Positions 43,861-63,102 are shown, numbered from the stretch's first letter. The stretch is 64,000 bases of DNA from Candidatus Bathyarchaeota archaeon (GCA_963706285.1 CAVPLU010000009.1:32001-96000); one strand, 5' to 3'. Notes: generated by a model not told the origin, from the sequence alone. Numbers and translations are program-made.

Positions 43861-44064
43861 GGTTTCCAGTTTCCAACCTTAAAACCGTGTGAAATAACCC
43901 GAGCGCCCTTCCTAGGCTCTCGCTCCATCTTGCGTTGGAGCCTTTCTCCTCGACTTTGACAACGGTGCCGAAAATTGTCGTGTAACTTGAATGCTCACGC
44001 TTATATCAATTCCATTCAGAATGAGATGAGAAACACATTGAGAATTCACATTAGCAACAATGCA

Positions 44065-47899: not shown

Positions 47900-47970
47900 A
47901 TGGCTTCTTCAGCTGACACGCTCACAGCGGGATCGATGTCGACTTCGGGAAATCCTTGTTAGGTGTCTTG

Positions 47971-49596
47971 TCACATCATGCCCATTCCGGGAGGCATACC
48001 TCCCCCGGGCGGTCCGCCAGCAGGTCCCTTTTCTCCCTTAGACGAAACTACGTCGTCGATACGGAGAATCATGCATGCTACTTCCGTTGATGACTTGATG
48101 GCTTGCTGTTTGACGCGAAGAGGCTCAATCACTTTCTCTTTGAGCATGTCAGCCACCTTTCCATCGTAGACGCTGACACCAAACCACTTGTTTCCGCTGT
48201 TCTGGTGCTTCATTCTTAGTTCAATCATGATGTCGATAGGGTCGAGTCCTGCATTCTGTGCGAGCGTCAATGGTATTGATTCGACAGCTTCTGCAAAGGA
48301 TTGAACGCCCAACTGCTCTCTTCCTCCAACCTTGACTGCAAAGTCACGAAGTTGCTTTGCCAGTTCCGCCTCAATAGAGCCTCCACCAGCAACGATCTTG
48401 CCGTCCTCAACGACGTTTCGGACTACGCAAAGGGCGTCGTGAATTGATCGTTCAGCTTCCTCGATAACGTGTTCGGAGCCGCCTCGTATCATAATGGTCA
48501 CCGCCTTCGGGTCTTTGCATTCCCTAATGTAGAGTAGCTTGTCGTCACCGATCTTGACCTCCTCTATCAGCTTGGCTTCGCCTAAGGATTCAGCGCCTAG
48601 ATCCTTCAGGGTCGCCACGATTTTCCCACCGGTTGCTCTTCCAAGTTTTTCCATGTCGCCGCTGCTAAGGTTCTTCGCGGCGAGGATTCCTCGTCTTGCA
48701 AGATAATGCAGAACAATGTCGTCAATACCTTTCTCGGATAACACTACGTTGGCCTTTGAATCGGCGATCTTCTCCACCATCTGCCTCATCGTTTTTTCCT
48801 CTTCATCTAGGAACGTTTTCATCTGGTCTGGGCTTTCGATAGTGATCTTTGCTTCGATCTCTGTCTTCTCAATCTCGAGCTTGGTATTGAGAAGGGCGAT
48901 TCTGGCTTTCTCTACTCGTTTCGGCATCCCTGGGTGAGCGATCTCCTTGTCGATGACGATACCTTTGATCAACTCTGTTTGATCTATTCCTTCGCCGCGT
49001 TTTTTCAACACTTTTATCCTATCGATATCTGCTTTGATCTTTCCATTCGAGTTCTCCATTACTTGTGTAACAGCTGAGGTGGCGAGTTGGGCAAGGTAGT
49101 CTTTGCTGGTTGCTACTGTCTTGGTTCCCATTGATGTGCTTGCTATCTGGCGTAGGGTTTTGATATCGGTCGAGTCTACCGTGATAGCTAGGGAGTCCAG
49201 GATCTGGAGAGCTTCAGCTGAACCTTTCTTGTAACCGTCTATGATGATCGTCGGGTGAACGTCCTGATCCATTAGTTCTTGAGCTTTCGAGAGAAGCTCC
49301 CCCGCCAGTATGACTGCCGTGGTCGTGCCATCGCCGACCTCGTTGTCTTGGCTTTTTGCAACTTCCACGAGCATCTTCGCCGCGGGATGTTGAACGTCGA
49401 ATTCCTTCATGATCGTGGCGCCGTCGCTAGTTATGACGACGTCCCCCATGCCGCTCACAAGCATCTTGTCCATTCCAAGCGGACCTAGTGTCGTTCGTAT
49501 AGTCTCAGTAACAATCTTGGCCGCCATGATGTTGCTTCGTTGAGCATCGTGACCCTTGCTTTCTGTTGATCCTTCCCGAAGAATGTAGATCGGCAT
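47971..49596 (-). CDS. Thermosome (group II chaperonin) subunit
   Basis: [23 protein letters not shown] and a GGM tail. Confidence 0.97.
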
Positions 49597-49695
49597 TGTT
49601 CCTTCAGACAACTTAATCCAAACCGTTAACAGGATGGGCTGCCCGCTTGATAAACCAAGCACCCGTAACGGGTCTTAGCAAGGAATGTGGCCGTG

Positions 49696-49803
49696 ATGGG
49701 TTGGTACTGTCCAAAGTGCCGTTCGGTGTTCGTTGAGTTTCAATCCACTTGTCCATACTGCCTTGTACGGCTGAGAAAGTCGAAGTACGAGGACCGGATC
49801 TAG
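49696..49803 (+). CDS. 35-aa zinc-finger micro-protein
   Basis: MGWYCPKCRSVFVEFQSTCPYCLVRLRKSKYEDRI. Confidence 0.65.
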   Translation: MGWYCPKCRSVFVEFQSTCPYCLVRLRKSKYEDRI

Positions 49804-49819
49804 CCGAAACAGAACAAAG

Positions 49820-49843
49820 CCATCCCTACCGCCTCAGGATGGT
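49820..49843. terminator. Hairpin between convergent micro-ORFs
   Basis: ccatcc...ggatgg inverted repeat. Confidence 0.35.
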
Positions 49844-49853
49844 GGTTTGAGCC

Positions 49854-50003
49854 TCATCGGTGGGTCGTGAATGATTTTCGACATTGTTCTGAGCAGAAAA
49901 CGTACCCTTTGGATAGGATGGGGTTCTCGATTTTCTTGCCGCAATTCGAACAGTATTTCCCATGAGTTCCGTTCGCTACCTCATTCAACGATGCGCACAC
50001 CAT
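49854..50003 (-). CDS. TRASH/zf-FCS-like metal-binding micro-protein
   Basis: YCSNCGKKIENPILSKGYVFCSEQC. Confidence 0.65.
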   Translation of the reverse strand: MVCASLNEVANGTHGKYCSNCGKKIENPILSKGYVFCSEQCRKSFTTHR

Positions 50004-50097
50004 TTACTTGCTTTCGTTGTCGCTCATATGCCTTGCGAGCAAGACCGCTGAAGATTCAGATTATAAGCGCGGGCACGGAATCGTTGATCGAGAAGAT

Positions 50098-50307
50098 TTG
50101 TCCGCACGCAAACGCGACCGCAAGTGGAAGGAAGAGTGGACTGGCCTAAGAACGGGAGAGTCGAAGCCACGAACCCGCGGAGTCAAGAGAAGAGAGAAGG
50201 GAGCAAAGGGAAAGTTCCGACTCCGAGGGATGGGAAAAGATGCAGGCGCCCGAAGCCGATGGAGGCCAAGACAGAACAGACAAAACAGAACGAGTCACCA
50301 AAGGTAA
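50098..50307 (+). CDS. Small Arg/Lys-rich basic protein
   Basis: TTG start after a TATA-like attataag; MSARKRDRKWKEEW...RWRPRQNRQNRTSHQR. Confidence 0.5.
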   Translation: MSARKRDRKWKEEWTGLRTGESKPRTRGVKRREKGAKGKFRLRGMGKDAGARSRWRPRQNRQNRTSHQR

Positions 50308-50441
50308 GAGACGTAACACTGAATAGAGCTGATAGATGTCTGGGAGTTTTGAGGTCTGACGTGGCTCTACTTCGCAATTCGTTCGAACCTATTGCCACGG
50401 GACTAGTTAGAAAACCAACATAGTTGGAGGTGAGAACAGGT

Positions 50442-50627
50442 ATGAGTCAAAGAGAGTACGAAGTTGAGATGACCAACGATCGCAAGAAGCTAATAGAGTT
50501 GCTTCAGCAGGGATTCAACTACATCTGCGATTACGAGGGCATGAAAGTACTCCGGAAGGAGAGCGGGAAATCCCGCAGGCGGAGAGAATTCATTAAGAGC
50601 TATTCCAGCCATCAACGAGAGACATAA
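50442..50627 (+). CDS. Small protein resembling the C-terminal tail of archaeal tyrosine integrases
   Basis: GGAGGTGA SD; EYEVEMTNDRKKLIELLQQGFNYICDYEGMKVLRK. Confidence 0.65.
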   Translation: MSQREYEVEMTNDRKKLIELLQQGFNYICDYEGMKVLRKESGKSRRRREFIKSYSSHQRET

Positions 50628-50865
50628 TGAAGCGGAGAGCAGGCGAATGCGTCCGGGCGAGTCATTTCTTCTTGCTCCAGTAATCAAGATGACCTCGACA
50701 AATGCTAGGGAGAGTTCTCGCACTACGCGTGAATCAACGTGCAAAATTCCTCGGTTCGCATTTCTAGCCTACGCTTCGGCAACACGAGACATCTCAACAC
50801 TGATAGAGACCAAAGGCCTTATGACCTTTGAAGATAACGAGCTAGAGAGCATAAGAGGAAGCCAA

Positions 50866-51000
50866 TTGCCCAGACGCAGTGGTCGGCAAAGAAGAAAGCG
50901 TGTTCACTCACGAAGAAACCCTACACGAAGAGGAAAGCGCACACGCATGGCGGAAAGAGACCGGAAGCGGAAAGCCGAGACAGGACCTACGAGGCCCTAG
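50866..51000 (+). CDS. 44-aa protamine-like Arg-rich peptide
   Basis: GAGG then TTG; MPRRSGRQRRKRVHSRRNPTRRGKRTRMAERDRKRKAETGPTRP. Confidence 0.55.
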   Translation: MPRRSGRQRRKRVHSRRNPTRRGKRTRMAERDRKRKAETGPTRP

Positions 51001-51063
51001 CGGGGCCTACCGGGAAATATTATATACATCTTATGCCGGAAAAAATATTGAGGTCGTTAGACA

Positions 51064-51213
51064 TTGGATATACTGTGGGTTATTGTTATAGTTCTTGTAA
51101 TTCTCTGGCTCTTGGGCCTACTCAGCGGAATAGGGACTCTAGTTCACATATTGCTGGTCATCGTTCTGATTGTGATTGTGGTCAGGCTTCTTCAAGGGAG
51201 AAAAATATTCTAG
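51064..51213 (+). CDS. lmo0937/DUF5670-like small membrane protein (absent from the ORF track)
   Basis: GAGGT SD; MDILWVIVIVLVILWLLGLLSGIGTLVHILLVIVLIVIVVRLLQGRKIF. Confidence 0.8.
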   Translation: MDILWVIVIVLVILWLLGLLSGIGTLVHILLVIVLIVIVVRLLQGRKIF

Positions 51214-51236
51214 TTCGAATTTGAACAGGATGAAGA

Positions 51237-51488
51237 GTGGATTTTATGATATCGTCTTTGCTTGTTGCAAGCATTGTTCGGGTGCTTAACGAAATAGGTG
51301 TGAATCAGACTGCAGGTTCCATGGTTAATTCAGCCTATACGTGGCTGGTGACCCTGAGTCCGATCATGCTGATAATCTTGGGCGTAATCGTATTCATCGC
51401 TGGGAGGTTCGCGAAATGGATCGGCATCATAATGGTCATCGTCGGCGTCATCTTCCTAGTCCTACCGTACATACTAGGCGTGATCTAG
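51237..51488 (+). CDS. Small membrane protein
   Basis: Two hydrophobic helices. Confidence 0.7.
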   Translation: MDFMISSLLVASIVRVLNEIGVNQTAGSMVNSAYTWLVTLSPIMLIILGVIVFIAGRFAKWIGIIMVIVGVIFLVLPYILGVI

Positions 51489-51506
51489 CCAGAGTCTGTG
51501 TAACCT

Positions 51507-51725
51507 ATGAGTCATTCGAGTAATTACTGCGATCAGTGTGGCGCTAACCTGAAGCCACAGTTCCAGTTCCGTGAGAACCAGCCCATGCTGTTCTACTGCC
51601 TTCAGTGCAAAGCCCCTAGAACCGTCGTGGCCACAGAGCATAAGCACCGAACCGACTATGCAATGGCTGATTGCCCCGAATGCGGCTCAAAAATGAGCAC
51701 GTACGAAGCGAACCCTTCAGGATAG
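51507..51725 (+). CDS. Triple-CxxC zinc-finger micro-protein
   Basis: CDQC, CLQC and CPECG. Confidence 0.75.
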   Translation: MSHSSNYCDQCGANLKPQFQFRENQPMLFYCLQCKAPRTVVATEHKHRTDYAMADCPECGSKMSTYEANPSG

Positions 51726-51768
51726 AAGAGAGAATAACTGAAAAAGAGATTCAAGGGGTGATTTCAAG

Positions 51769-51888
51769 ATGGCGAAGAAAAGCAGAGGCGGCAGAATGAC
51801 TTCAGCTAAGAAGCGTGCGGCCAAGAGGGCTGGTGGGCGCGGTCCTGTAAGAAAGCGTTCGGCCGGTCGAAAGATTATGAGGACTTGA
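51769..51888 (+). CDS. 39-aa histone-tail/protamine-like basic peptide (absent from the ORF track)
   Basis: GGGGTGA SD then ATG; MAKKSRGGRMTSAKKRAAKRAGGRGPVRKRSAGRKIMRT, 16 K/R and no acidic residue. Confidence 0.75.
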   Translation: MAKKSRGGRMTSAKKRAAKRAGGRGPVRKRSAGRKIMRT

Positions 51889-52010
51889 GACCTCATCGCA
51901 GTGAAACAGGCCCAATCATACGGCCCATGATGTGCTGCTCTCTCGTTAGTCATTCCGCGGGACTTCACATATGACCTGAAACGCCCCCAAACGCCACAGA
52001 ATGAGTCGCG

Positions 52011-52241
52011 TTGGTAGGCAGCCTTATCTTCCACCACTACCACCACTACTATCACCACTATTACTACTGGCGAAATGAAATGACCTTGATGAAATGCACC
52101 AACTGCGGCTACGTTCAAAACTACGGCGGCCGCCGCAACCTGACCTACACGTGCACCAACTGCAAACGCTCAGACATCGACCAACACGAAGCCGCCAACG
52201 CCTACCAGAAAGTGAAGCGGAAGGAGGCGAAAAAAGAATGA
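52011..52241 (+). CDS. His/Tyr-rich peptide fused to a zinc ribbon
   Basis: HHYHHYYHHYYYW then CTNCG...CTNCK; the stop overlaps the next ATG. Confidence 0.6.
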   Translation: MVGSLIFHHYHHYYHHYYYWRNEMTLMKCTNCGYVQNYGGRRNLTYTCTNCKRSDIDQHEAANAYQKVKRKEAKKE

Positions 52242-52627
52242 CAATGTCGTATTATCAGCCTCCTACCCAGTACCAGTATTATCAGCCACCGACTCAGTAC
52301 TATCAACCTCCTGCTCAGTACCAGTATTATCAGCCTCCTACCCAGTCCTATCAGCCACCGACTCAGTACTATCAACCTCCTGCTCAGTACCAGTATTATC
52401 AGCCTCCTACCCAGTCCTATCAGCCGCCCGCCGAGATGTACTCCTACCAGCCACCGACCCAGTCCTACTATCAGCCTCCTACCCAATACTACAACTATCA
52501 GCCTCCTACCCAATACTACAACTATCAGCCTCCTACCCAATACTATCAGCCACCGAGCCAGATGTACTCCTATCAGCCTGCTAACCAGATGTACTCGTAT
52601 CAACCGCAAGGATTCAGAGTCCAGTGA
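52238..52627 (+). CDS. 129-aa YQPP(T/A)Q tandem-repeat protein
   Basis: GGAGG SD and ATGA overlap; 15 YQP units with synonymous codon variation. Confidence 0.8.
   Translation: MTMSYYQPPTQYQYYQPPTQYYQPPAQYQYYQPPTQSYQPPTQYYQPPAQYQYYQPPTQSYQPPAEMYSYQPPTQSYYQPPTQYYNYQPPTQYYNYQPPTQYYQPPSQMYSYQPANQMYSYQPQGFRVQ
52280..52417. repeat. Exact 69-bp tandem duplication inside the repeat protein
   Basis: 52280-52348 is identical to 52349-52417. Confidence 0.9.
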
Positions 52628-53103
52628 CAGCTCTCTAGGCGTACTTCTCACGCCTTTCAAGAGAGCCCGAATCTTCTTTTTCCCAAAACTTAGCAACCTA
52701 CCATGGCAACTCATGCTCTACTCTTGTCGCAATACATGTGAAGGGGGCTCCCGGAACACGGAGAAACAAGCCGAAATTGGCAACGGTGCATGGAACCATT
52801 CGTTTTCAGCCGCTTTTTGCACGCCCCTCAAGAAACCGAATAGGATTACGGGATAGTAAGAGGAAAGCAGCCCTTGCATTAGGGGTCGAGATTCGATATC
52901 AGCCTTATAGGCACACGAAGTCCAGACAAGCGACGAGAAAGCTTCTGTCAGCTGTTTAGGTTCCGCTTCGTCCCGAAGGATGACTGCCACAGCTTGCGTC
53001 AATGCACGAATCGCAATCGCCGCACCATTTCACTGGCAAATGTGAATAGCCTTATTCCCGCATATTCAACCCCAGAAGCCCTGATCTAATTGGGCGTATT
53101 GGA

Positions 53104-54250
53104 TTGATAGCTGGAATTGAGTCACGCAGATTGAAGAACCGTTGGACAGTAGGGTTCTTCAGGCCTTCTGTTGTCGTGCTAGCCGCATACATCATCTACG
53201 TGGAGTTTGTACTGTCTCTCCATCAGTACGACCCAACGGTATTCATTCAAATAGGCACCATATTCGCTGATCGGGCAAGTTCCGTCGCGAGATTGGTACA
53301 CGACATTGGTTTTGGGCCTCCTTTTTGGAAAGCCGGATTTGACGGCCAGTTCTACTACTACATTGCGCTGGATCCGGTAAATGCTTGGGAGTTGCTTGAT
53401 ACCACCGCAAGATATCAGCGCATTTTGTACCCGATAATTGTTCGTTCGCTCTCCTTCGGATATTTGCCTTCTATACCGTTTCTGATGATCATCGTGAATT
53501 TGGCATCCATTTTTGCTGGAACCGAGTTTCTTGCCCGCTTGTTGAAGTGGTTCCACCTTAACTCGTGGTACTCGCTCGGCTATGGTTTCCACATTGGGCA
53601 GCTAGTGTGTCTGAGAAAAGATCTGCCTGAGCCCCTTATGTACGCGTTTGTGATAGCGGCCATCTACTTACGCAGAGGCCAAGGGAAGTTCTCGCCTTGC
53701 GGGAATAATGTTCCTTTTGGCGCTCTTCACGAAGGAGCCTGCCATCCTATTCATAGTAGCCTATGTCTTCGGACTTCTACTGAGTTCAAGAAGGAGGTCT
53801 CTGCGTGACGCTGCGCTTTTGGTTTCCATATCTGTTTTGCCATATGCAACCTACCAGCTCATGCTACTCTATCGTTTCGGTCAAGTTGCATTCTTAGGTG
53901 TGGGAAACCTGCAGACTTTGAGTATGATTCCATTCTATGGCGTTTTCCAAGTACCTCGGACTCCATTCGAACTCGCCTCAATTGCAGTTTCCATAGTGAT
54001 ACCAGTCACGTTGTCGCTTGCTATCTTCTTCCGCAGTGTTGTCAGAGGAAACGTCGAGCCTTTGCTTGTAGCACTATTACTGAACGCTCTCTTTCTGGCG
54101 TTCCTGCCGCCCCTGTCCTATGTCGATGTATTTACCTACGGCAGGGTCTCGCTGGGTCTTGCGACTGCGTGGATAGCACACGCAGGTTTCTCACAGAATA
54201 GGCGAATGCTTGACTTACTCGATCTTGTGGGCTATCCCCCTCCAATTTAA
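53104..54250 (+). CDS. GT-C-like multi-TM surface glycopolymer protein (frameshift near 53670)
   Basis: GFDGQFYYYIALDP, YQRILYP and ALFTKE. Confidence 0.7.
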
Positions 54251-54261
54251 CCACTTGCCTG

Positions 54262-54481
54262 AATGACTGAAGATCATGCGAACTAGCTAACGAAAGCGTT
54301 CACTGCGAAGATTTCTCTTCGCCGAATGGGTGTCCCTGACGATGTTGGGAAAGTCGCCGCGTTAGTAGGCTCTTCTGAGTCGGAATTTATGGCAGGAGAA
54401 CCGGTGATCCTTGATGATGTTGCCTCGATCATCTTCTGTGAAAGCGGTGGTGTCGCCTTTTGGTCTTCAGCTTTCATCTAG
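54262..54481 (+). pseudogene. C-terminal remnant of a short-chain dehydrogenase
   Basis: ISLRRMGVPDDVGKVAALVGSSESEFMAGEPVILD, preceded by an in-frame stop. Confidence 0.6.
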
Positions 54482-54486
54482 TTTAC

Positions 54487-54810
54487 TTAGATGAATCTTA
54501 ACAGTAAGCCGACTATGCCGCCTAGGAGTACGAGTAGGCCACCTAGGCCGCCTGCGATCACTCCTACGACTATGAGAATAATGTCCCAAGTGAGGTCGGT
54601 AGCACGTCTGGCGCCCATGATGGCGATAATGCCGAGGATTATTTCGATGATCCCCCAGAAGGATCCGCCGATGGGTCCGACTATCGATGGCACGAACATC
54701 AAAAAGGCCATTCCCAAGAAGCTTAGGATACCCTGGATTACTAGGATTATTCCGCCAATCAATGCGAGAATGTACGCAAGCTGTCCCAAGGAGCCTGTAC
54801 GCATCTGCAA
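54487..54810 (-). CDS. Small Gly-rich multi-TM membrane protein
   Basis: Three to four hydrophobic helices. Confidence 0.75.
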   Translation of the reverse strand: MQMRTGSLGQLAYILALIGGIILVIQGILSFLGMAFLMFVPSIVGPIGGSFWGIIEIILGIIAIMGARRATDLTWDIILIVVGVIAGGLGGLLVLLGGIVGLLLRFI

Positions 54811-54843
54811 TCAACTCAAGAGGTTGCATAGTTGAATTGCGTT

Positions 54844-54863
54844 TATAAGGTTATGTGCTTATA
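54844..54863. promoter_or_regulatory. Palindromic operator/TATA TATAAG-N8-CTTATA upstream of RHH gene 1
   Basis: tataaggttatgtgcttata; near copy at 55434. Confidence 0.6.
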
Positions 54864-54896
54864 TCGTTAAGACTGGAATATGGCGTCTGTTAGGGA

Positions 54897-55133
54897 ATGT
54901 TAACTTTGGGTAAGATGTACATAGTTCTTTCTGACGAAACGGAACGTAGACTCCGACTGGCTGTTGTCACAATTTTCGGCGGAAAGAAGGGCGATTTAAG
55001 CAGTGCCATCGAGGTGGCTATCAAAGAATGGCTGGATAAACATGCGACAGAAGCCGATATTACCAAATGGGTGCGAGGCCAGTTGCACGAAAGAGGTCCA
55101 GGGAGACCCCGTGCTTCGAAACGATCCCTCTGA
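54897..55133 (+). CDS. Ribbon-helix-helix (CopG-like) regulator
   Basis: MYIVLSDETERRLR...GGKKGDLSSAIEVAIKEWL. Confidence 0.8.
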   Translation: MLTLGKMYIVLSDETERRLRLAVVTIFGGKKGDLSSAIEVAIKEWLDKHATEADITKWVRGQLHERGPGRPRASKRSL

Positions 55134-55433
55134 ATCATATGCGCCCAATATCGAGCACTTTCACACTCTGGCATACCCTAATTCATTCTATCACTTGAAG
55201 GCACAAATCCCCTCTTCTCCAGGCATTTCTGGACCATAGTATCTCTGCATGAGTATTGCGGGAATCGCCTGCAAGCGCGTAGAAGCTTAAGTTCTAACTA
55301 CGAATCAACCAAAGAACGAATACAATGAGCATGATCCCAAAAAGACCGATTTGTACACGCATTCTAGACCTGCCTCCAAGGCCGACTGAAACTCAGTCGT
55401 GGTTATACCACTAAATCGTTATAACGTTAAATA

Positions 55434-55453
55434 TATAAGTTTATATGCTTCTA
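55434..55453. promoter_or_regulatory. Second operator copy TATAAG-N8-CTTCTA upstream of RHH gene 2
   Basis: tataagtttatatgcttcta. Confidence 0.55.
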
Positions 55454-55482
55454 TGCGCATATAGGGTGTGGCCAGATAATCT

Positions 55483-55647
55483 TTGGGAAGAATCTACGTA
55501 GTGCTCTCCGATGATGTCGAGCGCCGACTGCGATTATCAATTGTGAGGAGGCTCGGAGGTAAGAAAGGAGACCTCAGTTGCGCGATCGAGGAAGCTGTCA
55601 ACGACTGGCTAGGTAAGGCTTGGTTGAAGCCTGGAGATCGGATGTAA
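55483..55647 (+). CDS. Second RHH paralog (54 aa, absent from the ORF track)
   Basis: MGRIYVVLSDDVERRLRLSIVRRLGGKKGDLSCAIEEAVNDWL. Confidence 0.8.
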   Translation: MGRIYVVLSDDVERRLRLSIVRRLGGKKGDLSCAIEEAVNDWLGKAWLKPGDRM

Positions 55648-55668
55648 GAAGGGGAGGTGGAAAGAAAA

Positions 55669-55835
55669 ATGGGTCATGTAACTATTGGAGGTACTTACTA
55701 CAATCACTTATCGGACTATCTGTTCCCTACGTCGTCGGTTATCCATCATGCGACAATCCAACGTACGGTTACAGCTATGGTTCGTATAGTTATCCATACA
55801 CCTACGGTTCGTACGGATATCCGTACTATTGGTGA
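55669..55835 (+). CDS. Small Tyr/Gly/Ser-rich peptide (needs one extra base after the ATG)
   Basis: GGGGAGGTG SD then ATG; shifted frame ends YGYSYGSYSYPYTYGSYGYPYYW*. Confidence 0.55.
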
Positions 55836-56152
55836 TTAGAGCATCGTAACTAAACCGACTAGGTCGAGCACGATAAATGCTCGACCTCTTTTTTCTCATT
55901 CAATTGCAAGCGTTGAAAACACAGGCTGTCAGCTCAAAAGCAGCATAAGAGTCATAGATATCGCATCAAAAACGATACGGACCCAATAGGCTATGGGGAA
56001 GTGGAGGTTGTGACTCCAAGGAACAAAGGCGGATGGAGAAGGCGGAGACCGCTCAGGTGACTTCGGCATGGATAGTATTATAGGTGTGAGTAAGCTTACA
56101 TATGCTTAAGCTGGCATAGCCGATGATTCGAATAGGGAATAGGGCGCGTATA

Positions 56153-56731
56153 ATGAAACGAATCACAGCCGTTCTTCTCTTGGTCCTAGGTTTGGCAGCG
56201 TTTTCCCTGATGGCCACGCCATCAAATGCATCGATGGCCATGATCCGGGGTACTGTGTACTGGTATGACATGTACGGAAATCTCCGCCCACTTCCGTGGG
56301 CGCAAGTGGTCGCTGAAGGCAGTTCGGGAGAGCCCGCCACCGCTTCTACGACTACTGACGGTACCTACATGATGTGGGTGGCACCAGGGTCGTACAACTT
56401 GACCGTCTCCGTTGACCCTGCGTATACGCCCGAAAGCAAGACGGTCACGGTGACTGAAGGAGGCATGGCGTCGGCTGACTTCCAGCTTCAACCCTCTGGC
56501 AAGCCTATCCCAGAGTATCCATCCATGGCGCAGCCGGTAATGCTGTTGATCGCTGCCCTCGCCACGGCAGTCCTGATCCGCCGACGCAATCATGTCCGCT
56601 CGCAAGCTGACGAACATTCGCTTGGTTCTCCACAGCCCCGCGCAATCGTGGGCCGTGACTGGCCCGTGGATCCGACACTGCTACTGCAAACTGCACAACG
56701 TGGGAATACGATCTGCAGTCCGTTACAATGA
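56153..56731 (+). CDS. Secreted carboxypeptidase-regulatory-like (beta-sandwich) protein with PEF-CTERM-like sorting signal; 3' extension probably caused by an indel
   Basis: Signal peptide, DGTY...PGSYNLTV and PIPEYP-TM-RRR. Confidence 0.75.
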   Translation: MKRITAVLLLVLGLAAFSLMATPSNASMAMIRGTVYWYDMYGNLRPLPWAQVVAEGSSGEPATASTTTDGTYMMWVAPGSYNLTVSVDPAYTPESKTVTVTEGGMASADFQLQPSGKPIPEYPSMAQPVMLLIAALATAVLIRRRNHVRSQADEHSLGSPQPRAIVGRDWPVDPTLLLQTAQRGNTICSPLQ

Positions 56732-56743
56732 GGTTGAGAGAAC

Positions 56744-58087
56744 TTGGCTCGACGTTCTGTGGTTATTTTGACCGAACTCGCGCTGATCTTCATGATACTG
56801 CTGGTCGTCTATCCTAACGGAGCTGTCGCATCCGGAGCCCCTGCTAGTGAGCCGGCTGCCCTGAGCCTATCCGGTAGCGTTTCTGCAGGTTCTGCGATGC
56901 AGTATCCCTACCACTACTATTACAATTATCCTTACTACCCATACAACTACACGTACTACTACTCGTACTACTCTTACCCTTACTACTACCCCTACGCCTA
57001 CGACTCCTCATACTGCTACACGTACTACTATGACTACTACGGTTACAACTACGACTACTATCCCTACTTCTATTATGGGGCATACGGCTACCCCTACAAT
57101 TATCCGCAGTCCTGCTACCCGACGACAACAACCACCAGTACTCCCCCAGCAACCCCAACTTACGCACTTCAAGTGGCAACCAACCCCTCAAGTATCACTA
57201 GCGTGAGTGGAAACGGAACATACAATCAAGGAACCGCAGTGTCGTTCAGTGTTGCTTCGCTCATTATACCGAAGACCGCAAGCCAACGGTATGTCTTCAC
57301 AGGCTGGAGTGGAGACTTCTCAGGAAGTTCACCTAGCGGAACATTAACGATGACATCAGCAAAGAGCGTGGTCGCAAATTACCAGCTCCAGAACTACCTC
57401 AAGGTCTCCGTGGACCCTCAAGGAATCACAACCGCAGCTGGCGAAGGCTGGTACGTTCCGACTGACTCAGTCACCGCAGGTCCGGTCCCCTCATCCATCC
57501 CAGGAGGAGATGGAACTCGATACGTCTTCCAGCAATGGACGGTTGATAACGCTCCCGTCTCAGGAAACCCAGTGCAAGTCACTATGAGTAGCCCTCATGC
57601 AGTGGTTGCCCACTACAAGACGCAGTACATGCTCACAGTATTGTCCGACTATGGAATTGCTCAAGGAACAGGATGGTATGATGCGGGAACCTCGGCACCA
57701 TTCTCAGTTACAACACAGGTCGATGTGAGCTACGGCGTAAAGCAAGTCTTCGATAGATGGACAGGGGACACACAATCAACTTCCGCAGCCGCCGCAATCA
57801 CAATGGATTCGCCTCACACTGTCAGAGCCATTTGGAGAACGGACAGCACAGTCCTTTACACTACGATAGCGGTGGGCATCGCCGCAGCATTTGTGCTGGG
57901 CATAGGGCTGGCGATATTTGGGTTCATGAGAATGCGCGGAACGAAGTCTGCCCCAACAGCTCAGCCCACCACTCCGGTCACAACAGCTCAACCAGCTCCA
58001 GAAAAACTGAAGGCAACACCAACAAAGAAGAAAACTAAAGAAGTGTCAACAGGAACCGAGGGGAAAGCCCCCTCTTCTGAAGTCTAG
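56744..58087 (+). CDS. Surface protein with Tyr-rich N-terminal tract, InlB-B/Flg_new-like repeats and TM anchor
   Basis: Signal peptide; 40 Tyr in 73 aa; three YVF..W.GD / G.GWY repeats; TM and Lys-rich tail. Confidence 0.85.
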   Translation: MARRSVVILTELALIFMILLVVYPNGAVASGAPASEPAALSLSGSVSAGSAMQYPYHYYYNYPYYPYNYTYYYSYYSYPYYYPYAYDSSYCYTYYYDYYGYNYDYYPYFYYGAYGYPYNYPQSCYPTTTTTSTPPATPTYALQVATNPSSITSVSGNGTYNQGTAVSFSVASLIIPKTASQRYVFTGWSGDFSGSSPSGTLTMTSAKSVVANYQLQNYLKVSVDPQGITTAAGEGWYVPTDSVTAGPVPSSIPGGDGTRYVFQQWTVDNAPVSGNPVQVTMSSPHAVVAHYKTQYMLTVLSDYGIAQGTGWYDAGTSAPFSVTTQVDVSYGVKQVFDRWTGDTQSTSAAAAITMDSPHTVRAIWRTDSTVLYTTIAVGIAAAFVLGIGLAIFGFMRMRGTKSAPTAQPTTPVTTAQPAPEKLKATPTKKKTKEVSTGTEGKAPSSEV

Positions 58088-58160
58088 ACAAATCTGACCC
58101 GTAGGTTACCAGGCATCAGCTTGGACTATGATGCCTCGGTGTCTGACCAAGTCTCGGGGA

Positions 58161-58545
58161 TTACTTGCTGGCTTCTATCCAGCCTCGTTGACCCGTCGTC
58201 TTCACGTAGAGGTCGTATGCAAAGAATGCGCTAATGGCAAATTGGATAATGCCTGCAAAGAACCAAGCAAACGTCCAAATGAGAACTTCAACTACGATAA
58301 CAATTATGAACAATAGCACCGGTGGGACAGTCACAACCTTCTGATATCCCCAGTACCAGTAACCGATACCTGGAAAGAAGAAGTTCAAGATCGCTGCAAT
58401 CACAGCATTCTTTTCCCCACTCGGAGGTGGAACATTAAGAGGCTGCACAGACGAAGGTTGAGCAGACTTACCCAACTGGGCTCCCACAACTCACGCAAAA
58501 CGTTGCATTATCCTCATTCTTGCCGCCACATTTAGGACAGAACAT
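58161..58545 (-). CDS. Zinc ribbon plus TM2-like membrane protein (frameshift near 58485)
   Basis: MFCPKCGGKNEDNATFCVSCG joins KNAVIAAILNFFFPGIGYWY. Confidence 0.75.
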
Positions 58546-58816
58546 AAGACATTCAATATCATAAAGGTCGAATACTGATATTTAAGACCAAACTCTGAAA
58601 ACAGCATAGCCTAAGGTAGACGTGAAACTAATTCGCAGAGTATTTCTTCTTGAATGTCTATGTGGGCACGGTAATCCCATCAACGTTCGCAGGCGTAGCT
58701 CTTGCCAATCACTTGCAGTCGAAAGCCATCAAATCAGTGCCAGACGATATTCGTGAGAACAAGAAGTCTGAACTGCATTTCTGCTCTGATGACGTGCGCT
58801 CCAAAGGTCGCGGGCA

Positions 58817-59341
58817 CTAAGTAACTGTGCTGGCGCGCAATCTGGACATGATCAAATCTGCGACCTTGTCCGGGTTCGGGACGTCGACCATTTCTGCATT
58901 CAAGTTCTCACCAGGCTGCGTCCCGCGAACCAAGCCGTAACCGCTCTTTGTTACAGGAGCAACATTCCCATACCTCGCCAATCGACCCACAAGACTCTGC
59001 GAAACCTGCACGTCACTAATAGACGAGAACGGAATACGCCGAACACTACGCCCCAACAACTGCCTCTGTACAACAACATCAGAATCAGTAATCAGATATG
59101 TGAAAGCGTTCCTACGAATAGCACCAACCAACATACCCAAGATCCCCAAGCCAACCAATCCCAACGCCGCATACCTGAGGAGAGAATCAGCGGATGAAAG
59201 CGGAAACTCAAAAATGAAGCTCACACCGAAAACCACGATACCCAACAATACAACGAGAAAACCCTTCCAAGCGAACGGCACAAGACTCGGCTTGATTCTG
59301 ATGCCTTGTTTCGCTTGAGCCGACAAAACTTTTCGTTTCAA
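58817..59341 (-). CDS. Membrane protein with bacterial PH (bPH_2) domain
   Basis: YLITD..V....LL.R..R.IP...I.DV.V.QSLVGRL..YGNV. Confidence 0.8.
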   Translation of the reverse strand: MKRKVLSAQAKQGIRIKPSLVPFAWKGFLVVLLGIVVFGVSFIFEFPLSSADSLLRYAALGLVGLGILGMLVGAIRRNAFTYLITDSDVVVQRQLLGRSVRRIPFSSISDVQVSQSLVGRLARYGNVAPVTKSGYGLVRGTQPGENLNAEMVDVPNPDKVADLIMSRLRASTVT

Positions 59342-59619
59342 AGAATCATGAAATTGCTCGGATAAGGTTTTCTATTCTCAATTGAGTTGAAGTTCAGCCG
59401 GGTCCCACCTACGAGAACAGGACCACAGCTACGACACGATTTCCGAGACGTACATTCCGTTCGGAGTCTTCAATTCGTAGTGGACTGTTTTCGCAAGTAC
59501 CACGTCAGAGCACGTCAAAAATCCGACTGCCACGTTCCCCACTCAAAACCGTTCTTACTATATCTCTGACTCTCTTGGTGCACACAACACTCTTGGCATT
59601 GTGTGGCGAAAGAGTCTCT

Positions 59620-60051
59620 TCAGACGAAACCAGTCGCCAATATAGCAAGCGCAGCCAGTGCTCCGATAACCATGCCTACCGCCACTTCAGTTGGCGTGTG
59701 GCCTAGCGAATAATGCACGGGCGGCGTTCTGACATGCGCCAGACGTATGATGCTGTTTATTGTCTTTCCCTCCTCGCCAGCTGTGCGACGCACGCCCAAC
59801 GAATCCCGTATAACAACGACCGCAAGAACGACGGCCACGACGAATATCGAGTTCCGCCACCCTTCTGTCCAAAGGATAGAGAGGCAAAGCGCAGTGACAG
59901 TTGCCGAATGGGCGCTCGGCATACCGCCCGTCACCACAATGTCCTCAAGTGACAGACGTTGGCGATGACTCAATCTGATGAGTGACAGTTTCAGACCCTG
60001 CGCAACCGTCAGCGCGAGCACAACTGAACCAAACACCCCAGGAACGTCCAT
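59620..60051 (-). CDS. Divergent PAP2 family (DUF212) membrane protein
   Basis: GGMPSAHSA, DSLGVRR.AG and LGHTPTEV. Confidence 0.9.
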   Translation of the reverse strand: MDVPGVFGSVVLALTVAQGLKLSLIRLSHRQRLSLEDIVVTGGMPSAHSATVTALCLSILWTEGWRNSIFVVAVVLAVVVIRDSLGVRRTAGEEGKTINSIIRLAHVRTPPVHYSLGHTPTEVAVGMVIGALAALAILATGFV

Positions 60052-60215
60052 GGCTTGTCGAAGAGGTTTTAGAGCAAAAGGGTTTGTAAGTCATTCGTCC
60101 CAAAGCCTGTCGTGTCGTCGCTCAGGCTCTTCTTTGCTTGCGGACCACAAGACGCGCCCTTCGGAAATCAATCATTGATTGGTTGAGAACGCGGAGGGAA
60201 AGAAAGTCTCAACGA

Positions 60216-60356
60216 CTACTCTTTCTTTCTCTCTGTCTTTCTTCTCTCAGATTTCCACGTTGTTGCTTTCTCTATCTGGCGTCGCCCCTGTGTTGCTTTT
60301 CTGCCCTTCTGCGTCTCTCTTCGTAGTTTTTTCAATCTCCTTGTTCTCATTGACAT
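60216..60356 (-). CDS. 46-aa Arg/Lys-rich basic peptide (absent from the ORF track)
   Basis: GAGGT SD then ATG; MSMRTRRLKKLRRETQKGRKATQGRRQIEKATTWKSERRKTERKKE. Confidence 0.55.
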   Translation of the reverse strand: MSMRTRRLKKLRRETQKGRKATQGRRQIEKATTWKSERRKTERKKE

Positions 60357-60374
60357 GGCAGAACCTCGTCTCCC

Positions 60375-60674
60375 TTACTTGAGGTCCCGGCGCCTCTGCC
60401 AAGAGTCGACCTGGTCTCTTGTGGGCTCATCTTCGTCGTTGTTTCCATTCTCTTCGTTGTCTCCGGCGTCTTGATCGGGTTCATGTTCTCCTTTCTTACG
60501 TCCGTGTATCTCGTATCCGCACCGAGAGCATTTGTAGTAGTTCTCGTAGTGGCTGAATTGCTTGTCTGTCTTTTCTCCAGCCTTGAAGTAGGGTCGGGCA
60601 AAAGCGAGCATGAGACCTTCGCCGCATTTGGGACAAGGAATGGGACCTGTCATCTCTATCTTGTGTTCGGACAT
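60375..60674 (-). CDS. Zinc-finger protein with acidic tail
   Basis: CPKCG...YKCSRCGY then a D/E-rich segment. Confidence 0.7.
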   Translation of the reverse strand: MSEHKIEMTGPIPCPKCGEGLMLAFARPYFKAGEKTDKQFSHYENYYKCSRCGYEIHGRKKGEHEPDQDAGDNEENGNNDEDEPTRDQVDSWQRRRDLK

Positions 60675-60962
60675 GACCCTACACTCTACGCGATAGTTCT
60701 AGTTCAGGACCTCGATATAATACGGTACGATTAGGCACGGTGCGCATCAGGTTCCAAGTGATACTTCCCGAGTCTGCGACAGAGCCACATGATCACAAGC
60801 CTCGTCTTCGTTCTCTTTTCGTGTATGTGGCATCAAGGGAACCCAACGACGTTCATTGTGCCGCCAATCGCTGTCAATCAGGGGTTCAGGGACTTCTCGC
60901 TTGCTCCGCAAAGCGTATTCATATAGGCTTCCTTCATAAGGTGCACCTCAAGTATCACTCAG

Positions 60963-61532
60963 GTGCACCCTCTGGCTAAACACGAATCGTACATCCATAT
61001 AGAGAACGTCGTCGCGTCAGCCACACTGAACCAGAAGATTGACCTCAACTCGATTGTTCGGCTTTTTCCTGGCGTCGAATATAGGCCTGAGCAGTTCCCC
61101 GGACTCGTATACCGGCTGAAGAAGCCGAAGACCGCGACGCTGATTTTCACCTCTGGGAAGATGGTTTGTACCGGAGCAAAGTCCGAGAGGCAATCAAGGA
61201 AGGCGGTCATGAAAGTTGTCGACGAACTCAAGAGGAACGGGATGATCATCCTTGGAAAGCCGGAAATCCAGATCCAGAACATTGTAGCCTCAGCGGGACT
61301 GGGAGGCCACATCGACTTAGAAAAGACAACGTACTCTCTGAAGAGGACGATGTACGAGCCCGAACAGTTCCCAGGTCTAATCTACAGAATGGACGACCCG
61401 AAAGTAGTCATACTGATCTTTGCGAGCGGAAAGCTAGTGTGTACAGGCGCCAAGAAAGAGGCGGAAGTACCTAGAGCAATCGCAAAATTGCAGGAAACTC
61501 TGGAAGAGAAGGGCCTCATAACCTACGAGTAG
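60963..61532 (+). CDS. tbp: TATA-box-binding protein
   Basis: Two repeats of NVVAS/NIVAS...PEQFPGL...IF.SGK.VCTGAK. Confidence 0.98.
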   Translation: MHPLAKHESYIHIENVVASATLNQKIDLNSIVRLFPGVEYRPEQFPGLVYRLKKPKTATLIFTSGKMVCTGAKSERQSRKAVMKVVDELKRNGMIILGKPEIQIQNIVASAGLGGHIDLEKTTYSLKRTMYEPEQFPGLIYRMDDPKVVILIFASGKLVCTGAKKEAEVPRAIAKLQETLEEKGLITYE

Positions 61533-61651
61533 TCCCGAGCTCGGTCGGGCGAATTAACACTGCTGAGCTTGCCAGACATATGTAATGCTTCACGTTTGTC
61601 GCAAAAAAAGAACTGGGGGGCTCTGTTGTCCTGGGCGGTTTGCTGTTGTGT

Positions 61652-61975
61652 TTAGGTTGTTTTTGTTACTGTGATTTCGATGGTTGAGACGTTTCGTACT
61701 TGTCCTTCCTCGCCCAGCTGTTCGGTTCCGATATTGATTTTTTTGACGTGAAGTTTGCCTTCGAAGAATCGTCTTCTGCATACTTCTACGACGTCTACGG
61801 CTGCTGATATGGCTCTCCCTCTTGCTTTGATTGTTACGTCGCCGCTGCCGCTGGTGAATTGCATTAAGATGGCTGTAACGTAGGCCATGATGGGTTTTTG
61901 TCCGATGAAAATGGTGTTGGAGGGGATTCCACTCTGGCTAGGAGGGGTTGGTGGTACTTTTTGTTGTTCTGTCAT
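61652..61975 (-). CDS. albA: Chromatin protein Alba
   Basis: IFIGQKPIMAYV, IKARGRAISAAVDV and VSTIEI. Confidence 0.95.
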   Translation of the reverse strand: MTEQQKVPPTPPSQSGIPSNTIFIGQKPIMAYVTAILMQFTSGSGDVTIKARGRAISAAVDVVEVCRRRFFEGKLHVKKINIGTEQLGEEGQVRNVSTIEITVTKTT

Positions 61976-62303
61976 GTTCTGTTCACCACTTTTTGCTTTT
62001 GTTACACATTGGATAGGACGCACGGTCCGAATCCACTGTATACATCCATGGATACCGTTGCCGTCCACTTAAGTATCCTAGGTTCGGTTGACACGCGCCA
62101 CACATATTCCGCGAATTCTCCCCTCTCAAGAGGCTGCCCTACGTACGCGTGAGGAAAGTGTACGTCCCCTAACAACCTAACAACAACGGCAAGTCTAATG
62201 TTGACTATAACCCGGGAAGGCGACCAACAGCAACCCGGTCAGACTCCGCTGAGAATGCTCCCGACATTGTGGCAGCTGTAGTTGGAGGTGAAACGAAGCG
62301 GCC

Positions 62304-62540
62304 TTAGGTTCCTTCCATAGTCATCAAGGTCAGCGATGATCTGAGGTTCTTGAGCTTGCGGACCTTCGAAGTTATGACTTCTTTCAGTTCTTTCATCGTC
62401 TCCGCCTCGACTTTCGCGACGATATCATATACGCCATATACGGCATGGGCTTCGCTAACGCTGTTGAGCTTTCTGAGTTCCCTCAGAAGTTCGTCTTCTG
62501 AGCCGACCTCAGCGTTAATCAAGACGATGGCTAGGGGCAT
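62304..62540 (-). CDS. Lrp/AsnC ligand-binding (RAM) domain-only protein
   Basis: AIVLIN.EVG and VYGVYDIVAKVE. Confidence 0.9.
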   Translation of the reverse strand: MPLAIVLINAEVGSEDELLRELRKLNSVSEAHAVYGVYDIVAKVEAETMKELKEVITSKVRKLKNLRSSLTLMTMEGT

Positions 62541-62838
62541 CGTTTGGATACCTACTTCCTAGAAACGCCACGGCCGTGCCGGGTAAAAAGGAGTTTGGTG
62601 CAACCGATCCATTCATTCTCTTTCAACGAGAAGCCTTGACGAACTTCATCTGATTATTCATATGATGGAGTGAAGAGAATTCGAATACTTCGCAACCGAT
62701 GAAATATTGTAGTTAGAACCGTTCATTTGTGTGGGGGAGGTTGGTGCTTGAGCTGTGTCCATGATTTCTCATTAGGTATCATAGGCATTGGACTTGAACG
62801 GGATATTGATTTTACGAGCTTGACAGATGACTCACGCG

Positions 62839-63102
62839 CTAGACGGCTTTGTAGTATACTATCCTGCCGAACTTTCTCACGTCAACCTTACCCTCCCGAA
62901 ACAAGTTATCTAGCGTCATAATGACACAGGCAACTATCGCCGCACCAGTCATTGGTTTCATGAGCGAATCTTTCATCACTTCGTTTCCAATCTCCTTCCC
63001 TGAGTAGGCTTTGTCACGATCCCTCGTTAGGAATTCAAGAACTGTGGCTTCCATTGATACGATACGTCCAGCCTTTTCCCATTCTGCCTTGCCAATTGGC
63101 AA
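62839..63102 (-). CDS. Small winged-helix hypothetical protein
   Basis: VLEFL...DKAYSGKEI...LDNL.REGKV....YY. Confidence 0.65.
   Translation of the reverse strand: MPIGKAEWEKAGRIVSMEATVLEFLTRDRDKAYSGKEIGNEVMKDSLMKPMTGAAIVACVIMTLDNLFREGKVDVRKFGRIVYYKAV

Follow-up and report, generated by a model that had tools for sequence, protein, structure and literature searches.

Do the many tiny genes that lie between a thermosome gene and a TBP gene on a Bathyarchaeia contig belong to one programme, or is their company accidental? The locus is a 64,000-nucleotide stretch of Candidatus Bathyarchaeota archaeon DNA (GCA_963706285.1, CAVPLU010000009.1:32001-96000), which we call the window, and within it positions 49,696 to 60,674, which we call the interval. 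An original prediction had read the interval as a single island of protamine-like, tyrosine-rich and stress-type peptides, forming a resting-state module that couples DNA compaction with coat formation. Our conclusion is that the 11-kb interval is a mosaic of at least four independent units in a rearrangement-prone region, not a single module. One of these units, a cluster of micro-proteins, recurs as a linked set in other Bathyarchaeia. The reading that we favour, with a probability of about one half, is that of an accessory stress-type micro-protein cluster, autoregulated by ribbon-helix-helix (RHH) proteins and horizontally exchanged, which has been split within this mosaic. The anatomy and linkage of the cluster are much firmer than its function: the sequences show these two, and also the selection, the patchy distribution and the low synonymous divergence, whereas regulation and a role in stress are inferences.

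Bathyarchaeia, which have not been cultured, abound in peat and anoxic sediments, where their energy flux is thought to be very low. A compact, transferable cluster made almost wholly of micro-proteins, most of them overlooked by automatic annotation, offers a concrete gene set for testing how they tolerate stress or persist.

The contig to which the window belongs, C9, is one of 21 in G000, a 2.13-Mb Bathyarchaeia metagenome-assembled genome (MAG) with a completeness of 89% and a contamination of 7.5% (7.47%). Relative genomes are numbered from G001, related loci or contigs carry L-numbers, and C denotes contigs. Using a list of open reading frames (ORFs) together with Pfam and NCBIfam profile scans at curated cut-offs, we count about 23 candidate genes between the thermosome gene (47971-49596/49662, minus strand) and the TBP gene (60963-61532, plus strand), 18 of them encoding at most 110 residues, in line with the roughly 20 short genes originally noticed. 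For 19 proteins, PHROG and PADLOC were searched as well. Coding capacity was judged by aligning relatives and counting synonymous and non-synonymous differences in all three frames (given as pN/pS or omega), and by this comparison most of the small genes of the interval are under purifying selection in their annotated frame. Codon-usage scoring of short ORFs lacked discrimination and was dropped in favour of pN/pS per frame.

A recurrent cluster of micro-proteins

The recurring part of the interval can be followed by its signature gene, z72 (51507-51725, plus strand), which encodes 72 residues with three invariant CxxC pairs. Scanning metagenomes with z72 gave 65 loci, of which 64 carry z72 in 49 distinct sequences; all window proteins were searched against these loci, and each gene is counted over the loci with enough flank to show it. 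The loci are not independent, because many come from related populations. A gene of the lmo0937 family (DUF5670; 51064-51213, plus strand), encoding a 49-residue two-helix membrane peptide, stands directly upstream of z72 in 51 of 54 loci, and b39 (51769-51888, plus strand), encoding a 39-residue Lys/Arg/Gly/Ala peptide of net charge +16, stands directly downstream in 50 of 56; both belong to the core of the cluster. Within 6-7 kb upstream of z72 are found the genes for a 107-residue membrane protein, m107 (54487-54810, minus strand; 13/13 loci), an 83-residue LiaF-TM-like membrane protein, m83 (51237-51488, plus strand; 12/13), two RHH proteins, rhh54 (55483-55647, plus strand; 12/13) and rhh78 (54897-55133, plus strand; 12/13), and a Gly/Tyr-rich peptide (55669-55835, plus strand; 11/13). 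A gene for a membrane protein with a bacterial PH domain (bPH; bPH174 in the window, 58817-59341, minus strand) lies within 5 kb of z72 in 9 of 11 loci.

In the usual layout, rhh78, rhh54 and the Gly/Tyr peptide gene are read in one direction and, divergently from them, m83, m107, the lmo0937-family gene, z72, b39 and bPH in the other, often with a CsbD-like gene and sometimes with the pair z76 and yqp129, the latter encoding a Tyr/Gln/Pro (YQP) repeat protein. The compact example L056 has rhh54 and the peptide gene diverging from the same six genes. The CsbD-like gene is present in 16 of the 65 metagenome loci and lies no more than 800 nucleotides upstream of bPH in 13 of 22; z76 and yqp129 follow downstream of z72 in 9/40 and 8/35 loci respectively. 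A thermosome gene lies within 4 kb of z72 in 7 of 14 loci. Other genes of the interval keep no such company with z72: cpd202 was near it in one of nine loci, y447, z38, b99a, z99, DUF212 and m108 in none of nine each, and TBP in none of 14. One architecture of the cluster has a CFI-box-CTERM protein of about 900 residues (NF041770, 68.7 bits; no Pfam family) between m107 and bPH (L043:3100-5787, L074:3280-5985 and L089:3349-6114).

The window holds every member of the cluster except the CsbD-like gene, distributed over three pieces (51064-52627, 54487-55835 and 58817-59341) and rearranged in orientation. The CsbD-like gene is missing from it because the only copy in the genome is on contig C16 (C16:61259-61429; PF05532, 46.6 bits, cut-off 40), right after a second copy of m83. 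Second copies in G000 are found on C16, at 89-91% nucleotide identity, and on C3, at 98%; that on C16 is a partial copy of the cluster, consisting of the peptide gene, rhh54, rhh78, m83 (84% identical in amino acids to m83 of the window) and the CsbD-like gene. The stretch from the basic ORF b117C to a gene for a GT-C-like membrane protein, with 51064-52627 inside it, is reproduced in contigs L062, L107, L063 and L066.

Selection on the cluster genes is purifying. pN/pS is 0.20 for the lmo0937-family peptide, 0.43 for m83, 0.44 for m107 and 0.23 for z72 (41 distinct sequences), while b39 has 0.20 in its own frame against 0.95-2.47 in the others (41 distinct homologous sequences). Omega is 0.06 for rhh78, compared with its C16 copy, and 0.16-0.20 for rhh54; yqp129 has a pN/pS of 0.14 (5 sequences), and the 0.48 of z76 amounts to moderate support.

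Several members can be placed in families. The lmo0937-family peptide passes both of its profiles (NF033488, 42 bits, cut-off 30; PF18919, 33.2 bits, cut-off 23.5), so that its original identification stands, and two hydrophobic stretches are visible in the 49-residue sequence. bPH174 passes PF03703 (bPH_2, YdbS/YdbT-like; 50.1 bits, cut-off 22) over residues 79-164 and has a hydrophobic N-terminal part, and m83 reaches 24.2 bits on PF22570 (cut-off 27). The twin RHH regulators of the original prediction are likewise upheld: rhh54 scores 28.7 bits on PF16762 (RHH_6; cut-off 27), and rhh78, which at 22.7 bits is below that cut-off, is 63-64% identical to rhh54 over 45-46 residues and has a weak PDB match (2k6l_A, E 0.0016), so both are predicted RHH regulators. 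Among the 19 proteins searched in PHROG and PADLOC none had an informative match, the best in PHROG being that of the bPH protein to a 'membrane-flanked domain' family. An exhaustive HMMER search of 1.84 billion proteins with z72 returned one full-length 50%-identity cluster, one fragment and spurious matches to long repeat proteins; m107 finds only archaeal hypothetical proteins in the ESM Atlas; and among 5.8 billion proteins the Gly/Tyr peptide has one called relative, a partial match. We found no description of the cluster in the literature, and no paper with DUF5670 or with Bathyarchae together with CsbD, in a search to which supplements did not belong.

Within the class the cluster is rare. 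z72 occurs in 11 of 401 genomes sampled across it, namely in 2 of 10 from the window's genus (G000 counted), 8 of 23 from genus g4 and 1 of 5 from g9, and was not found in the other 128 genera sampled; b39 also occurs in 11 of the 401, ten of which are z72 genomes. The eight genomes of the window's genus without z72 are 77-95% complete, and absence from incomplete MAGs is no proof. The cluster is a patchy accessory element of a few wetland Bathyarchaeia, not a lineage-wide programme.

Comparison of G000 with L043, a g4-type contig, points to horizontal exchange of the cluster between genera. Synonymous divergence (dS) is 0.15-0.59 for the cluster genes (bPH174 0.38) and 0.29-0.37 for two adjoining ordinary genes, whereas for the thermosome, AsnA, an M50 protease, an ABC transporter and a permease it ranges from 0.84 to saturated, at amino-acid identities of 48-86%. 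Because dS in the cluster is far below that of the housekeeping genes, the exchange would have been recent. G036, from another family, has two copies of the core at 81-93% nucleotide identity, the rest of the contig having no DNA similarity to G000, which reflects either transfer or a binning error. These copies, L015 (C5:1-8200) and L016 (C4:1-2300), comprise the lmo0937-z72-b39-m83 core together with a YQ-rich ORF, an RHH gene and m107.

Mosaic structure and composition of the interval

That the interval is not one unit is seen most directly in G001, the closest relative (94-95% nucleotide identity in common stretches), which joins window position 50938 to 52858 and 54377 to 60124. Two large segments of the window are thus missing from it, and its order is thermosome, z38, z49, b99a, p67, b117, the GT-C-like gene, z99 and TBP. 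Each junction lies at a 10-nucleotide direct repeat that flanks the extra segment of the window (AGAGGAAAGC and AGGCTCTTCT, at approximately 50929-50938 / 52848-52857 and 54368-54377 / 60114-60123). The junctions look like microhomology deletions in G001, with which it agrees that b117C loses its conserved end at the junction. In G008, a genome of the same genus with 10 contigs, the pieces of the interval are spread over five: thermosome, z38, z99, b117C, b46, b99a and z49 on C1; m83, lmo0937, z72 and b39 on C11; cpd202 and y447 on C9; DUF212 on C5; and the sequence upstream of TBP on C7.

Other relatives repeat some of these associations. z38 adjoins the thermosome in G001, G008 and G009, z99 adjoins z38 in G008, z49 lies near the thermosome in G023, L052, L074 and L081, and the pair cpd202-y447 is conserved in G001-G004 and G008. 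The units may accordingly be drawn as (a) the thermosome-side micro-genes conserved within the genus, namely z38, z49, b99a, p67, b117C, z99 and b46, (b) the accessory micro-protein cluster, the only part that recurs elsewhere, (c) the surface-protein pair cpd202-y447, and (d) the single genes for the GT-C-like protein, m108 and DUF212. Of the single module originally proposed, what survives is a subset: a linked, co-inherited and undescribed cluster with stress-associated families.

What had suggested a programme was composition, and this observation is real, because the genome-wide scan shows enrichment that is strong for Tyr-rich ORFs and modest for the other classes. Defining a Tyr-rich ORF by at least eight Tyr within 25 residues, and scanning the whole genome in 1916 sliding windows, we find three of the genome's 11 such ORFs in the interval (0.06 expected), a number reached in only 6 of the 1916 windows. 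Small ORFs with two CxxC pairs number four against 0.61 expected (26/1916 windows equally high), and very basic small ORFs two against 0.25 (51/1916). A composition-based grouping of small ORFs can, however, mimic a programme where unrelated units form a mosaic. The one cluster that is conserved has no relation to the Tyr-rich surface protein or to three of the four basic ORFs.

The four very basic ORFs have the claimed charge (net +14 to +18), but among them only b39 is clearly coding, and the four share no sequence similarity. For b99a (50008-50307, plus strand; net +18) the support is weak, with a pN/pS of 0.54 against 0.87-1.22 in the other frames (4 sequences); the overlapping frame 50124-50423 has no coding support, and a homologue search found called proteins of 105-147 residues in different frames or with different starts in other assemblies. 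The frames of the other two are unsettled. b117C (50821-51000, plus strand; net +14) has a pN/pS of 0.56 against 0.69-0.77, and is 88-93% identical in nucleotides in L107, L062, G001 and G008, its stop being kept in three of the four and its start codon absent from G008; b46 (60216-60356, minus strand; net +15) has 0.55 in its own frame and 0.27 in another (3 sequences). All three lie in purine-rich DNA (T 11-17%) in which stops are rare in every frame, so that basic 'peptides' are open in every frame. None of the four basic ORFs matches a family in Pfam, NCBIfam, PHROGs or PADLOC (b117C within a 117-residue ORF, and in Pfam and NCBIfam only). The purine-rich stretches, 50040-51000 and 60130-60380, are 85-93% identical within the genus, have three open frames and gave an empty Rfam scan; they may encode disordered proteins under weak constraint, or be non-coding elements.

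Of the four Tyr-rich proteins, the ORF at 52011 begins with a His/Tyr stretch (52011-52079) that is probably untranslated, since two of five homologues do not keep it open: L062 has a stop there, and in L078 the frame is shifted; the conserved z76 protein begins at an internal Met near 52080, is not Tyr-rich, and consists of a zinc ribbon of about 53 residues with a basic tail (conserved part 52080-52241, plus strand). Its stop is overlapped by the start of yqp129 (52238-52627, plus strand; repeat family D1). The gene at 55669 belongs to a family of 51-55-residue Gly/Tyr peptides with a GGAGGTG ribosome-binding site upstream; the copy in the window is broken by a one-nucleotide deletion at 55735/55736, compared with the intact C16 copy and four metagenome homologues (L056 and L054 among those intact). 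On inspection, neither this peptide nor yqp129 has a signal peptide. yqp129 has stand-alone paralogues in G000 at C8:79235-79576 and C12:44222-44602; the one on C8 has a terminal Gly/Tyr tail that resembles the Gly/Tyr peptide, a hint that the lineage has a wider family of cytoplasmic proteins that are Tyr-rich and of low complexity. Neither the basic nor the Tyr-rich ORFs matched a family in Pfam, NCBIfam, PHROG or PADLOC, spore protein families included.

The fourth, y447 (56744-58087, plus strand; PF18998, 49.5 bits), has a paralogue on C10 and is a surface protein: it combines a signal peptide with a Tyr-rich stretch of low complexity, InlB-B-repeat domains and a membrane helix at the C-terminus. 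Its partner cpd202 (56123-56731, plus strand) is a secreted or anchored CarboxypepD_reg protein (PF13620, 38.2 bits). The C-terminus of cpd202 (56650-56731) comprises PIPEYP, a hydrophobic helix and RRRN, with the ORF running about 45 residues further; we take it to resemble an archaeosortase-type sorting signal, and no NCBIfam CTERM model matched it at E up to 0.01. Values for cpd202, y447, m108, bPH, DUF212 and z99 range over 0.09-0.44, with an omega of 0.14-0.19 for y447 and 0.09-0.17 for z99.

Five or six zinc-finger peptides had been claimed, and we find z38, z49, z72, z76 and z99, with m108 as a sixth whose ribbon is cut off. z38 (49687-49803, plus strand) is a 38-residue zinc ribbon, divergent from the thermosome gene and conserved within the genus (omega 0.08-0.13 in frame); z49 (49854-50003, minus strand; omega 0.08-0.44) is a 49-residue zf-FCS/DUF2116-like zinc finger whose Pfam matches are all below cut-off; z99 (60375-60674, minus strand), also conserved within the genus, is a 99-residue zinc ribbon with an acidic tail. 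p67 (50424-50627, plus strand), of 67 residues and without a family, has an omega of 0.05 against G001, the only orthologue found. The DUF212 (divergent PAP2) protein is encoded at 59620-60051 (minus strand; PF02681, 120.6 bits).

Three single-base frameshifts fall within 5 kb of the window: that in the Gly/Tyr peptide gene, one in m108 and one in the GT-C-like gene. m108 (58161-58545, minus strand), a zinc-ribbon membrane protein, has an extra G at 58483-58485 compared with its C3 paralogue, an intact 127 residues (PF13240, 31.6 bits), and with its G001 orthologue, and thereby loses its N-terminal zinc ribbon. The gene for a glycopolymer-formation (GT-C-like) membrane protein (53104-54250, plus strand) carries one T too many at 53668/9 by comparison with G001 and L063, where it is intact at 386 residues, and contigs from three of four sequencing runs are without one base at 53667/8. 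The GT-C-like enzyme of the original prediction is in our hands a probable relative of NF046093 (AZOBR_p60025 glycopolymer formation) that is frameshifted and scores below the cut-off of 150: the N-terminal half reaches 118 bits (118.4) and the other half 17, and the intact L063 orthologue reaches 143. The GT-C fold is used here only as a label.

Of the flanking genes, the thermosome probably starts at the Met at 49596 (PF00118, 618 bits) and is 88.6% identical in amino acids in G008 and G009; a thermosome query against genome contigs gave 12 loci, few of them informative. TBP has three copies in G000 (window region 60963-62068, C12:58420-59488 and C13:151869-152426), mutually 85-88% identical in amino acids. 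The TBP (plus strand) and Alba (minus strand) pair of the window is repeated on C12, and a further Alba copy, 93% identical, is at C14:73992-74399; the copies are true paralogues or else the result of strains mixed in the MAG. Scans of 47000-63000 for tRNA genes and Rfam families found none. GC content dips to 0.408 at 43001-44000, compared with about 0.50 elsewhere in the window.

Proposed regulation and stress function, and competing explanations

The original prediction had proposed a search for a shared promoter motif. An element, ATATAAATATATAACCTTATAAGC, is strongly conserved in 17 aligned intergenic regions between an rhh gene and m83, and its core is the inverted repeat TATAA-NN-TTATA. 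In the window, the divergent promoter of m107 and rhh78 (54811-54896) carries TTATAAGGTTAT at 54843, and the palindrome TATAAGTTTATA (55434-55445) lies upstream of rhh54. Across G000, TATAANNTTATA has four matches, three of them at RHH promoters: two at the rhh78|m83 promoter on C16 and one at 55434; the fourth, C8:6391, adjoins an unrelated small ORF. A related 12-mer occurs in the genome only at the m107|rhh78 promoter (54843) and on C16. A genome pattern scan placed no palindrome upstream of the thermosome, the lmo0937 gene, cpd202/y447 or the basic ORFs. Since the palindrome sits only at RHH promoters, there is no sign of an island-wide regulon, and the simplest reading is that the RHH pair may regulate its own expression.

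How would such a cluster work? In the reading that we favour, the divergent promoter of the two RHH genes would be bound by their own products at its palindromic element, which overlaps the TATA box, and this would control the expression of tiny membrane proteins together with very hydrophilic peptides (CsbD-like, b39 and the Gly/Tyr peptide, which are all extremely hydrophilic or of low complexity). Under stress, the proteins so controlled would protect membrane and cytoplasm, and the cluster would be an accessory equivalent of the small proteins within the general and envelope stress regulons of bacteria. We prefer a stress-type set because the named members (lmo0937, CsbD-like and bPH) and the protease and chaperone neighbours point that way: Pfam scans of the flanks of six large loci found the thermosome, an M50-CBS protease (2 loci), LonB, BON, and SPFH with an M48 peptidase. 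CsbD, after which its family is named, is controlled by sigma-B. That lmo0937 is a SigB gene in Listeria, as originally stated, is supported by two reports, in which it is lower in sigB mutants (PMC7690807) and down-regulated by a sigma-B inhibitor (PMC3225968). A third lists ydbST, which encodes bPH proteins, as a sigma-W operon that protects against amylocyclicin (PMC8144471).

More tentatively, and with rather more doubt than belief, one may go further and imagine, in some wetland Bathyarchaeia, a transferable stress cassette in which an autoregulating RHH repressor pair controls, from a palindromic bidirectional promoter, proteins of 39-170 residues that together confer a tolerant, slow-growth state. 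Its set, put forward just as hesitantly, would be hydrophilin-like peptides (CsbD-like, b39 and Gly/Tyr), tiny membrane proteins (lmo0937 family, LiaF-TM-like, m107 and bPH) and the orphan zinc protein with three CxxC pairs. If this is true, archaea would have a counterpart of the bacterial general stress response whose genes are physically clustered and which gene callers largely miss.

A number of points weigh against the stress-type reading. It is important to note that the stress link is drawn from family names in Firmicutes, not from an archaeal experiment, and that family and homology searches found no characterised relative of z72, b39, m107 or the Gly/Tyr peptide; the AlphaFold2 model of z72, from a 10-sequence alignment, is poor (pLDDT 55.6). 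The six loci scanned for neighbours were hand-picked and are not independent. The palindrome overlaps ordinary TATA boxes and may for that reason be merely a bidirectional promoter. Low dS may partly reflect nucleotide constraint on very short genes, although the two ordinary flanking genes share it (0.29-0.37). The thermosome tree leaves the window-type, C8-type and g4-type clades unresolved and the ancestral adjacency to the thermosome undecided. Behind the three frameshifts there is either decay of redundant copies or an error in the assembly consensus. Finally, the order of 54378-60124 is confirmed by no other contig, in a MAG with 7.5% contamination.

Against these points must be set the fate of the alternatives. 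The main rival is that the cluster is a peptide-toxin and immunity locus, resembling that of a leaderless bacteriocin, from which b39 or the Gly/Tyr peptide would be exported while bPH and the membrane proteins would serve in transport or immunity. bPH (YdbS/YdbT-like) proteins are indeed named as transport or immunity factors of leaderless-bacteriocin loci (PMC10311245, PMC8657885), the distribution of the cluster is accessory, patchy and exchanged, both peptides are leaderless, and b39 is strongly cationic. ABC transporter genes adjoin the cluster in L065, and transporter-like ORFs lie near the copy on G036:C5 (from ORF reading, with no family scan). We nevertheless hold this reading to be unlikely. 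Twelve of the 39 residues of b39 are hydrophobic, seven of them Ala, which argues against an amphipathic, membrane-active peptide, and the Gly/Tyr peptide is not cationic; an ABC transporter stands beside the cluster in only one of the six large loci scanned; selection on the peptides is purifying, not diversifying; and the CsbD-like gene fits a stress set better. The resting-state programme, with protamine-like DNA compaction and a hardened, Tyr cross-linked coat, had been proposed for the interval as a whole, and we now find it scarcely credible. The charges of the basic ORFs, the share of Tyr-rich ORFs, the presence of stress-type families and a truly Tyr-rich surface protein in y447 all speak for it, but they are set in an interval that is not a unit, where only b39 is clearly coding among the basic ORFs, the Tyr stretch at 52011 is probably untranslated, y447 and cpd202 are unlinked to the cluster (0-1 of 9 loci), a signal peptide is lacking, on inspection, from both the Gly/Tyr and the YQP protein, and no basic or Tyr-rich ORF has a family match. 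The cluster is missing from eight of the nine other genomes of the genus. We found no evidence that supports DNA compaction coupled to coat formation, nor homology to chromatin or spore families, and general Pfam scans of the region turned up no peroxidase or laccase gene.

Two further explanations would deprive the cluster, or the order seen in the window, of meaning. Small archaeal viruses typically encode RHH, zinc-ribbon, small hydrophobic and basic proteins, and the cluster might be the cargo or remnant of a mobile element, a provirus or plasmid, with no cellular role and with the window copy decaying. Low dS between genera, the two copies in G036, the three frameshifts and the 10-nucleotide direct repeats at both G001 junctions fit this, and these repeats are the only mobile-element features at the locus. 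No integrase, replication or capsid gene was seen near the cluster on ORF reading, nor did any turn up when the flanks of six loci were scanned with Pfam; there is no tRNA gene in 47000-63000, no meaningful PHROG match among 19 proteins and no relative of z72 in the viral contig collection. Purifying selection is strong over 41 sequences, and two of the three frameshifted genes lie outside the cluster, so we give this account little credence. The juxtaposition in the window, especially over 54378-60124, might instead be an assembly or binning artefact that mixes strains, as the contamination of G000, the near-identical copies on C16 and C3 and the frameshifts would allow. None of the contigs examined bridges the GT-C-like gene to m107, and downstream of that gene in L063, L066 and L068 no window protein matches. 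Yet the first part is reproduced in the independent contigs L062, L107, L063 and L066, contigs of sequencing runs X1 and X4 cover 28-30 of 30 bins, in short pieces only, and the direct-repeat junctions look like real deletions in G001; we think an artefact quite improbable. The run contigs are short pieces of related populations, and the joints are supported by flanks below 30 nucleotides or by a single low-depth contig.

Comparison with known systems

The likeness of the interval to the small acid-soluble spore proteins (SASPs) and Tyr-rich coat proteins of Bacillus is one of composition only, small basic ORFs lying near Tyr-rich proteins; we found no homology, the genes are unlinked in relatives, and the small Tyr-rich proteins are without export signals. 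Leaderless-bacteriocin loci such as those of enterocin DD14 and geobacillin 6 come closer, combining bPH proteins, leaderless small peptides and small membrane proteins in accessory loci as the cluster does. They differ in that the peptides of the cluster are neither amphipathic nor cationic-hydrophobic, an ABC transporter is usually absent, and CsbD-like and RHH genes are present.

In enterobacteria, the tLST, or locus of heat resistance, is an example of horizontally moved blocks of stress genes that are patchy within a genus. The cluster differs from it in size (2.5-7 kb) and in being made almost wholly of micro-proteins, and no mobility genes were found in it.

The closest comparison that we can offer is with the stress regulons of Firmicutes, sigma-B for CsbD and lmo0937 and sigma-W for ydbST. 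Here the host is an archaeon, the genes are clustered instead of dispersed, and two RHH proteins stand in place of a sigma factor; the cluster adds the orphans z72, b39, m107 and the Gly/Tyr peptide, and is accessory and horizontally exchanged. What it has in common with these regulons are the lmo0937, CsbD-like and bPH_2 families themselves, and a make-up of tiny membrane proteins and very hydrophilic proteins encoded beside chaperone and protease genes.

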